From: Neisseriaceae bacterium
Lineage (GTDB): Bacteria > Pseudomonadota > Gammaproteobacteria > Burkholderiales > Neisseriaceae
Assembly: GCA_017518845.1 (NCBI GenBank)
Contig: JAFWTP010000098.1
Coordinates: 1 to 44,127 of the forward strand
Length of the DNA stretch: 44,127 bases
Direction: 5' to 3'
Part shown: positions 39,417 to 40,445 of the stretch, piece by piece
Layout: each line of letters begins with the position of its first letter
Position numbering within the stretch: position 1 is the first letter of the stretch
Notes under the pieces: model-generated
The model's database searches: none
What the model was told of the DNA's origin: nothing
Seen by the model: only the letters and a program-made list of their open reading frames with translations
Program-made: the position numbers and the translations under genes

Positions 39417-40439
39417 TTATTTCACGCTCCAAACACCGCCAAAAACTTGTTGCAATTTCTGGGCAAATGGGTCTTGTTGTAGGGTTTGTAGTCGTTGTTG
39501 TTGTTCTTCTTCTTTATGGCGTTGTTTGGCTTGGCTGGCACTTTCAAAATTATCTTGCCATTCAATAAGTTGTATCTTTTGTTGCGTGCTGTAATGCTGT
39601 GCCAAAACTTCGCCCAAAGCAGATAAGTGAGCAGGTTTGCAAAATAATTCCCCGCTTTTATGCACGCTTAATGTGATTTTTTGCTGTTCCACTTTAATCA
39701 GCGATGAATGTTGTGCTAACAACACATTCGCCCCTAATTGTGGGGTGAGTTTCTGCACAATAATATGCCAGTTATCTGGTGTGAGTTCGGGTAAATCAAG
39801 GGGAGTGTTCTCTTTCACCGTGGGGTGGGTCTTCGACCCACCGATAACGCCGTTCGGTGTTTCTTCCTGTATAGGGTGGGCATTCTTGGCAGCCGCAACG
39901 CCGTCAGGGGTTTCTTGTGTATTGTGATTATCTTTCAGGCTGCCTGAAACATTTTCATTATCAACGCCTGCGGCGTTGTTGGTGGCTTGTGTTGCCCACC
40001 CTACGGCAGATTGATTTTCTTGTTTCAGGCTGCCGTTATCGTCATTGCGAGCCTGTGTAACAGGCGAAGCAATCTCCGAATAAATAGGCGTAGCCGATTT
40101 ATTCGGGTGGCGTTGTTCGGATAGGCTACCTGAAATGTTTTCATTATCAACGCCTGCGGCGTTTTGGTGGGCAGGAATGCCCACCCTATAATCGTTTTCT
40201 TCCGCCGTAGGGTGGGGCTTCAACCCAGCGATAACGCCGTCAGGCGTTGTTTGTGCGTTATTCGGAAAGCGTTGTTCGGATAGGCTACCCGAAAAATCTG
40301 GCGATTTTTCACAGATTGCTTCGCTTTGCTCGCAATGACGAATTTCCTGCACGGGAAGTGCTTTCAGGCTGCCTGAAAAGTTATTTTTTTGCTCGTTTTC
40401 GCCCCTACCATTATTTGCCACAACAGCAGGGGCAGTTAT
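39417..40439 (-). CDS. dnaX: dnaX tau-specific extension, in the -1 frame relative to 40436-41581
   Basis: 340 codons are open in the -1 frame from the slippery site. The C-terminal 130 aa (TPDNWHIIVQKL...LSVHKSG...QQVFGGVWSV) look like the tau domain IV-V region. The joined product would be about 721 aa. Confidence 0.7.
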   Translation of the reverse strand: MTAPAVVANNGRGENEQKNNFSGSLKALPVQEIRHCEQSEAICEKSPDFSGSLSEQRFPNNAQTTPDGVIAGLKPHPTAEENDYRVGIPAHQNAAGVDNENISGSLSEQRHPNKSATPIYSEIASPVTQARNDDNGSLKQENQSAVGWATQATNNAAGVDNENVSGSLKDNHNTQETPDGVAAAKNAHPIQEETPNGVIGGSKTHPTVKENTPLDLPELTPDNWHIIVQKLTPQLGANVLLAQHSSLIKVEQQKITLSVHKSGELFCKPAHLSALGEVLAQHYSTQQKIQLIEWQDNFESASQAKQRHKEEEQQQRLQTLQQDPFAQKLQQVFGGVWSVK

Positions 40440-40445
40440 TTTGGG
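40401..40445 (-). promoter_or_regulatory. Candidate -1 ribosomal frameshift cassette (heptamer, stop, stem-loop)
   Basis: On the minus strand: C_CCA_AAA (40445-40439), TAA (40438-40436), spacer ending ACT, then stem GCCCCT...AGGGGC (40433-40428 paired with 40406-40401) with a 21-nt loop. Confidence 0.45.

Follow-up and report, generated by a model that had tools for sequence, protein, structure and literature searches.

How does a bacterium obtain the tau subunit of its DNA polymerase III when the open reading frame (ORF) of dnaX stops right after domain III, and everything specific to tau lies in another frame? The question is raised by dnaX of an uncultured, rumen-associated Neisseriaceae bacterium (assembly GCA_017518845.1, contig JAFWTP010000098.1, positions 1-44,127). 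This whole stretch of 44,127 nucleotides (nt) is referred to below as the window, and all dnaX coordinates given for it are on its minus strand. Very probably, the answer lies in programmed -1 ribosomal frameshifting: tau would be the product of the shift, and gamma what the ribosome makes by default. The features on which this answer turns, in the order in which a ribosome would meet them, are:

40436 to 41581 (stop included), minus strand: dnaX zero-frame ORF encoding domains I-III, 381 amino acids (aa), MAYQ...ELSDPK (Pfam, NCBIfam).
40464 to 40466, minus strand: closest upstream stop codon of the -1 frame, TGA, the 5' limit of the stretch in which the frame can change (three-frame translation).
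40439 to 40445, minus strand: slippery heptamer C_CCA_AAA, in register with the upstream frame (sequence, conservation).
40436 to 40438, minus strand: zero-frame stop codon TAA, which adjoins the heptamer and fixes the C-terminus of gamma (three-frame translation).
39417 to 40439, minus strand: the part of dnaX specific to tau, read in the -1 frame over 340 codons and a TAA, with a repeat-rich linker ahead of domain V (translation, BLASTP).

The zero-frame ORF ends in ...GAA TTA TCC GAC CCA AAA TAA. Pfam recognises in it DNA_pol3_delta2, the ATPase lid and DNA_pol3_gamma3, i.e. domains I-III, with the match to domain III extending to residue 370, and the best NCBIfam match is to positions 1-380 of the 709 positions of PRK08691, the Neisseria-type gamma/tau model. 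Coordinates, translation and Pfam thus agree with the initial annotation, made from the letters alone, which had assigned domains I-III to 41581-40436 and had them end in GAC CCA AAA TAA. Downstream of the junction, translation of all three frames leaves the -1 frame as the sole open one, again as claimed, and it runs for 340 codons (40439..39420) to a TAA at 39419..39417. The zone open in both frames, put at about 25 nt beforehand, measures 25 nt and contains C_CCA_AAA in register at 40445..40439; by our own arithmetic, an in-register X_XXY_YYZ motif would fall within an overlap of this size by chance in only ~3% of cases. The long ORFs of the window, ~29.7 kb in all, contain the string CCCAAAA seven times, with dnaX as the only in-register case. 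The products that follow from this layout are those initially proposed, a gamma-like protein of 381 aa and a trans-frame tau of 721 aa with the junction ...SDPK-ITAPAVV...; a peptide spanning this junction would be LSDPKITAPAVVANNGRGE, and the junction Lys is a trypsin cut site. As for the decoding side, the window has a single tRNA gene, for tRNA-Gly.

Could the two frames simply reflect one wrong nucleotide? That sequencing or assembly had introduced a 1-nt error into an otherwise continuous dnaX was the mundane alternative from the outset, and nothing splits ORFs more often in a metagenome-assembled genome (MAG). The layout was compared across ten independently assembled contigs from about five diverged lineages, all of them Neisseriaceae MAGs or metagenome contigs from different studies, hosts and species (L001/L008, L002, L003/L004/L010 from yak, L005, L006, L007, L009 from water buffalo, and L040/L041). 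Among these, L005, L006 and L007 represent the three GTDB species nearest to the window and are MAGs from the forestomach or abomasum of sheep, roe deer and water deer. The two-frame layout with an in-register C_CCA_AAA is present in ten of ten contigs, even though these differ from one another at many neighbouring bases; moreover, there is no long homopolymer at the site, and no other split gene was seen among the long ORFs of the window. Because ten independent contigs keep the same layout, an error is regarded as excluded, its residual probability being negligible. A pair of adjoining leucine-rich-repeat (LRR) genes on the minus strand (41809-43230 and 43266-44024) was considered as a second split gene that would hint at poor assembly and was ruled out, both genes being complete; the downstream one encodes ~150 aa of LRR followed by ~300 aa that have no Pfam match.

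Beyond the bare layout, what exactly is conserved? The gamma parts of the relatives are 69-98% identical to that of the window or to P0025, and the cluster nearest to the window gamma, with 57 member sequences, is likewise 381 aa long. In all relatives the zero-frame ORF has 377-386 aa and ends in ...GTEL-x-[DS]PK plus zero to five codons, its stop lying 0-5 codons past the heptamer and directly adjoining it in most lineages. The -1-frame ORF of the relatives extends over 185-381 codons, except in L001/L008, where the contig ends after ~125 codons. The heptamer itself is identical in eight of eight distinct cassettes, each of its three codon columns showing a single third-position base, and the third positions of all 13 codon columns upstream of it vary, with two to four different bases each. 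In several lineages CCA accounts for a minority of the Pro codons, and in L040, where the residue before the heptamer changes from Asp to Ser (GAC to TCC), the first C of the heptamer is retained. On this pattern of third positions, the heptamer is selected beyond the protein level. In two lineages the frame-change stretch is even narrower than in the window. In L002, a -1-frame TGA adjoins the heptamer and 22 nt are open in both frames. In L009, a -1-frame TGA adjoins the heptamer on one side (tcTGACCCAAAATAA) and the zero-frame TAA follows directly on the other, which leaves 7 nt open in both frames, so that a change of frame without meeting a stop is possible only at those 7 nt.

In a neighbour-joining tree, i.e. 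a simple distance tree, the reversed forms make up a monophyletic group that has the continuous dnaX genes as its sister, and a single origin of the reversed layout is likely. Searches for further members kept the clade at this size: a protein search with domain V returned only seven close relatives, each a separate short ORF, another that took the basalmost reversed protein as its query returned no cultured clade member, and a scan of metagenome contigs returned continuous out-group dnaX only and no additional reversed lineages. Four short hits (P0131, P0136, P0146 and P0057) were rejected as clade members, for they are without the ...DPK ending and lie on contigs of 1.9-3.5 kb; they are probably short owing to contig ends.

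If the two frames are real, is the second one still tau? It is conceivable that the gene is split or decaying, in which case the cell would make gamma only, the downstream ORF would be separately initiated or a relic, and tau function would come from elsewhere. This is in effect how gene callers and NCBI treat the locus, since they annotate the halves separately and list the C-terminal ORFs as a 'hypothetical protein' of 111-223 aa. The part of the -1 frame that bears most directly on this possibility is:

39420 to 39806, minus strand: tau domain V, which binds Pol III alpha, in the -1 frame (BLASTP, dN/dS, PF12170, Foldseek).

The C-terminal part of the -1 frame matches positions 535-698 of the 709 of PRK08691, the very model that is also matched by the gamma half. 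The window domain V aligns with residues 520-644 of N. meningitidis tau (BLASTP E = 2.5e-14), and so does every complete -1 extension, each pairing with N. meningitidis tau from ~480/520 to 644/651, i.e. over its last 125-170 residues, at E values of 1e-4 to 1e-21 (the L001 extension, cut by the contig end, was left out of this set). PF12170, the tau domain V family, is matched in five of seven lineages at E <= 0.01. When domain V is compared between the window and L005-L007, the ratio of nonsynonymous to synonymous substitution rates (dN/dS) is 0.07-0.30 for the -1 frame, and for neither of the remaining frames does it fall below 0.8. A search of PDB sequences with the domain V profile gave no significant match; Foldseek, run with a low-confidence model of domain V, placed the C-terminus of E. 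coli tau first (5fku_E, E = 0.03) and also returned 5fkv_E and 2aya (E values 0.03-0.08), a likeness between predicted and known structure that lends weak support. Judged by these alignments and substitution rates, the -1-frame part is a real tau C-terminus under purifying selection, and this selection, acting across species, is hard to reconcile with a relic.

Separate initiation of the downstream ORF fares little better. No conserved start codon with a Shine-Dalgarno-like motif was found in the -1 frame in the clade, and L009 has not a single ATG, GTG or TTG in the first 120 codons of that frame. In addition, a split gene would leave the invariance of the heptamer without explanation. Tau physically links the clamp loader, through domain III, to DnaB and Pol III alpha, through domains IV and V. 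Domains IV and V on a detached fragment would leave Pol III and DnaB without this link to the clamp loader. Taken with the annotation practice that speaks for it, a split or decaying gene appears improbable.

The linker between the junction and domain V (39807-40380, -1 frame) has a character of its own, for it consists largely of repetitive extragenic palindromic (REP)-type elements and elements resembling DNA uptake sequences (DUSs), the same as those found in intergenic positions, such as GTAGGGTGGGC..., CGTCATTGCGAGC... and DUS dyads, whose translation reads ...SGSL.... It is strongly variable among close relatives, with -1 extensions of 291 aa in L005, 381 aa in L006, 310 aa in L007 and 340 aa in the window, and in L009 a peptide unit of ~26 aa is repeated there in tandem about five times; none of these insertions closes the -1 frame. 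A second heptamer, A_AAA_AAT (40383-40389, minus strand), lies 17 codons past C_CCA_AAA and in register with the tau (-1) frame, roughly where Neisseria has its A_AAA_AAG; a further -1 slip on it would run into a TAA immediately. It is present in L007 and missing from L005, L006 and L002, and because of these absences it is probably incidental.

A heptamer in a short overlap is only one half of a typical -1 signal. Is there also a stimulator? The candidate in the window is:

40400 to 40434, minus strand: predicted stimulatory hairpin, which follows the heptamer after a 4-nt spacer and has 15 bp in its stem and 5 nt in its loop (folding, z-score).

The initial annotation had placed a stem 5 nt past the heptamer; folding gives this 15-bp hairpin at a distance of 4 nt, or 5 nt if counted to the first G-C pair, and the observation is confirmed in all its particulars. 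Its predicted energy is -23.1 kcal/mol, with a z-score of -4.0 to -4.5 against shuffled sequences. A hairpin is predicted 4-6 nt past the heptamer in eight of eight distinct cassettes (-14 to -25 kcal/mol, z -2.8 to -4.8), and when a helix of 14 pairs is laid on the alignment, 92% of the cells are paired, compared with 43-62% when the partners are slid by one to three columns. The CCCC/GGGG core is constant, and the upper stem and loop vary in sequence and length among lineages. The hairpin was also considered as a dispersed repeat or a DUS; its sequence is unique in the window, which sets it apart from the dispersed repeats, and this possibility was ruled out. Two sequence features of a canonical -1 signal are thus in place, an in-register X_XXY_YYZ inside the overlap and a stable 3' structure 4-6 nt away, and the comparison with sister genomes that had been suggested as a check came out in favour of the proposal, since two-frame structure, in-register heptamer and hairpin are all kept in the ten contigs.

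How might these elements work together? Slippage on the ribosome, and its stimulation by the predicted hairpin, are what we infer from the sequence. Ribosomes would translate domains I-III and arrive at C_CCA_AAA, at which point the hairpin would stand at the mRNA entry channel. A fraction of them would slip one base back, with the P-site tRNA-Pro moving from CCA to CCC and the A-site tRNA-Lys from AAA to AAA. Where the stop codon adjoins the heptamer, an alternative route is conceivable, in which, with UAA in the A site, only the P-site tRNA-Lys shifts along the four As; both routes would yield the identical peptide ...DPK-ITAP.... Shifted ribosomes would then read 340 more codons through the linker and domain V to complete the 721-aa tau, and unshifted ribosomes would terminate at the adjoining UAA and release the 381-aa gamma-like clamp-loader subunit. 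As to the heptamer, the closely related C_CC.A_AA.G is the most efficient in E. coli, reaching 54% with a strong stimulator, and C_CC.A_AA.A is counted among the shift-prone, under-represented motifs (PMC4066793).

Would it not be possible for the frames to be joined before translation begins? In programmed transcriptional realignment, RNA polymerase would slip and some of the mRNAs would carry a 1-nt change that joins the two frames. Transcriptional slippage has been shown for gamma synthesis in Thermus. The runs prone to it, however, comprise ~7-9 or more A or T, and the longest homopolymers at the junction are A4 and C3 in every lineage. With A4 as the longest run throughout, transcriptional slippage is unlikely; nor would it need a perfect in-register X_XXY_YYZ with a hairpin at frameshift spacing. 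What speaks for realignment is the precedent of other dnaX genes of reversed polarity, for 12 of the 17 published ones carry A7-A10 tracts at the junction and realignment has been inferred for them, the poly-A genes of Chlorobi and Bacteroidetes included (Antonov et al. 2013, PMC3711429). All in all, realignment must be deemed very improbable at this locus, and ribosomal frameshifting at C_CCA_AAA remains the favoured explanation.

Several observations nevertheless weigh against ribosomal frameshifting, or against particular parts of it. X_XXA_AAA motifs are much weaker in E. coli than X_XXA_AAG, and the essential nature of tau implies that a substantial shift efficiency would be needed here. 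No conserved upstream Shine-Dalgarno-like stimulator was found in the clade cassettes, a GGAG upstream of the heptamer occurring in L001 and L002 only, and the 4-nt spacer of the window is at the short end of the usual range (typically 5-9 nt). Covariation in the hairpin is modest, with only two pairs changed on both sides, and the stem overlaps tau coding sequence, so that its conservation cannot be attributed purely to the RNA, constraints on RNA and on protein being confounded. On the protein side, the PF12170 match of the window is sub-threshold (19.7 bits in one scan and 21.5 bits in another, against a cut-off of 28.8) and the AlphaFold2 model of domain V is of low confidence (predicted local distance difference test score, pLDDT, 62.6). 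Finally, the members of the clade are all uncultured MAGs or metagenome contigs. On the other side of the scale stand the conservation across the clade, the selection on domain V and the absence of a conserved internal start, which together support the original proposal that tau requires a -1 shift and gamma arises by termination.

The polarity just described is not that of the surrounding family. In Neisseria, Kingella negevensis and Vitreoscilla-like MAGs dnaX is continuous; Neisseria DnaX, with ~73% identity, has about 656-667 aa and that of Kingella negevensis 660 aa. An E. coli-type A_AAA_AAG is found in N. meningitidis and in one Vitreoscilla-like MAG. In N. meningitidis (L042, 2173-2229) it is in register and reads GCA AAA AAG, ~17 codons past the position homologous to C_CCA_AAA, with a -1-frame stop six codons later, and in a Neisseriaceae MAG (L011, 3372-3390) it reads CCA AAA AAG, with a -1-frame TGA two codons later. 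The L042 sequence matches the Rfam family RF01843 (neisseria_FSE) with 65.8 bits, the matched region including the Neisseria DUS (TTCAGACGGC). With L042 as the positive control, RF01843 gave no match in the window, L002, L003, L009 or L040 (in the window none at E <= 10) and none in L011; RF00382 had no hit that reached its gathering score, nor any in the window at E <= 10. The Neisseria element occupies the corresponding region of dnaX in those relatives that are nearest among the cultured ones, yet there a single continuous ORF of ~656 aa is in place, the -1 frame ends six codons past the site and slipping makes gamma.

The comparison with E. coli and Salmonella (RF00382) runs along the same lines. 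There, too, the signal lies in dnaX at the same domain boundary and consists of a -1 X_XXY_YYZ heptamer with a Lys codon in the A site and a stem-loop a few nt downstream, and the two products have domains I-III in common. By contrast, the shift in E. coli makes gamma, on A_AAA_AAG instead of C_CCA_AAA, into a -1 frame that in the E. coli type ends within a few codons instead of running on for 340, and with a Shine-Dalgarno-like stimulator ~10 nt 5' of the site that has no conserved equivalent here. Another parallel is found in orfAB of IS3/IS911 and further -1 frameshift genes with overlapping ORFs, where the functional long product is likewise a trans-frame -1 fusion made at a heptamer in a short overlap with a 3' structure, although transposases tolerate low efficiency and the product here is an essential chromosomal replication subunit.

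Is the reversal itself new? As a description of the layout, the initial statement that dnaX is here 'the reverse of E. coli' is correct; as a concept it has been anticipated (PMC3711429, PMC5009743). Two-ORF dnaX genes whose tau needs recoding were reported as GeneTack cluster COF_239165634 by Antonov et al. 2013 (NAR 41:6514), whose section on them counts 17 genes in 12 genera, none annotated in RefSeq, and gives Chlorobium, Flavobacterium, Cytophaga, Capnocytophaga, Coraliomargarita and Prosthecochloris as taxa (PMC3711429). The phyla named in that section are Chlorobi, Bacteroidetes and Verrucomicrobia, and the reversal of dnaX polarity is also discussed in passages of Atkins et al. 2016 (PMC5009743) and Sharma et al. 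2014 (PMC4066793). The resemblance to that set is close: the first ORF ends just past domain III, the tau part has to be read in the -1 frame, termination by default yields gamma, the genes go unannotated, and the switch of frame sits at the same place and runs in the same direction in relatives (about five lineages here). What differs is the betaproteobacterial host, the combination of C_CCA_AAA with a hairpin, the existence of sister genera of opposite polarity and, with respect to the majority of the set, a junction with A4 only and no A7-A10 tract, five of the published genes being without poly-A. Reversed polarity is known, then, in other phyla, and is not described, in the portions of these papers that deal with dnaX, in Neisseriaceae or with a C_CCA_AAA signal.

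Some traits of the window tie its organism to particular members of the family. A 15-nt palindrome, TTCAGGC[A/T]GCCTGAA, is present in 50 copies, ~1.1 per kb (e.g. at 39934-39948, 40363-40377, 41604-41618 and 41762-41776), and in every copy an AG-kingDUS (AGGCAGCCTGAA) overlaps, as a dyad, with an AG-simDUS (AGGCTGCCTGAA) read from the opposite strand; the window contains no classical Neisseria DUS (GCCGTCTGAA). A prevalence of such dyads has been reported for Simonsiella muelleri, Alysiella crassa and Kingella negevensis (PMC7371117). The dyads place the organism among the DUS-using Neisseriaceae, and it is presumably naturally transformable. Downstream of dnaX, the window has a family-9 heptosyltransferase gene (waaF/rfaF-like, 38236-39330, minus strand), whereas L002 and L040 have ybaB, followed in L002 by recR, which means that synteny after dnaX varies within the clade.

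What, then, does the reversed dnaX mean for these bacteria? At the level of annotation, the public records show a 'DNA polymerase III subunit gamma/tau' of 377-386 aa next to a 'hypothetical protein', with slippage not recorded, so that tau appears to be missing from the genomes of the clade; its dnaX should be annotated as a ribosomal-slippage join. At the level of evolution, the clade is likely to represent an apparently independent origin of tau by recoding, one that uses a ribosomal heptamer and a hairpin instead of poly-A. The occurrence of opposite polarities within one family fits the prediction, made in the part of Atkins et al. 2016 concerned with this gene, that a small change can swap the product that needs the shift (PMC5009743), and it offers a comparative system for how frameshift efficiency is set for an essential protein. 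A bolder and rather doubtful extension is that dnaX recoding changed polarity in the whole clade, as compared with sister genera that use A_AAA_AAG to make gamma, that the clade obtains its essential tau only through a high-efficiency -1 shift at C_CCA_AAA, and that its tau:gamma ratio could follow the competition between slippage and release factor, since the stop adjoins the slippery site in most lineages. Should this be true, the composition of the replisome would be coupled to the translational state of the cell, and Neisseria and the reversed clade would form a natural pair in which to follow the evolution of frameshift set-points.

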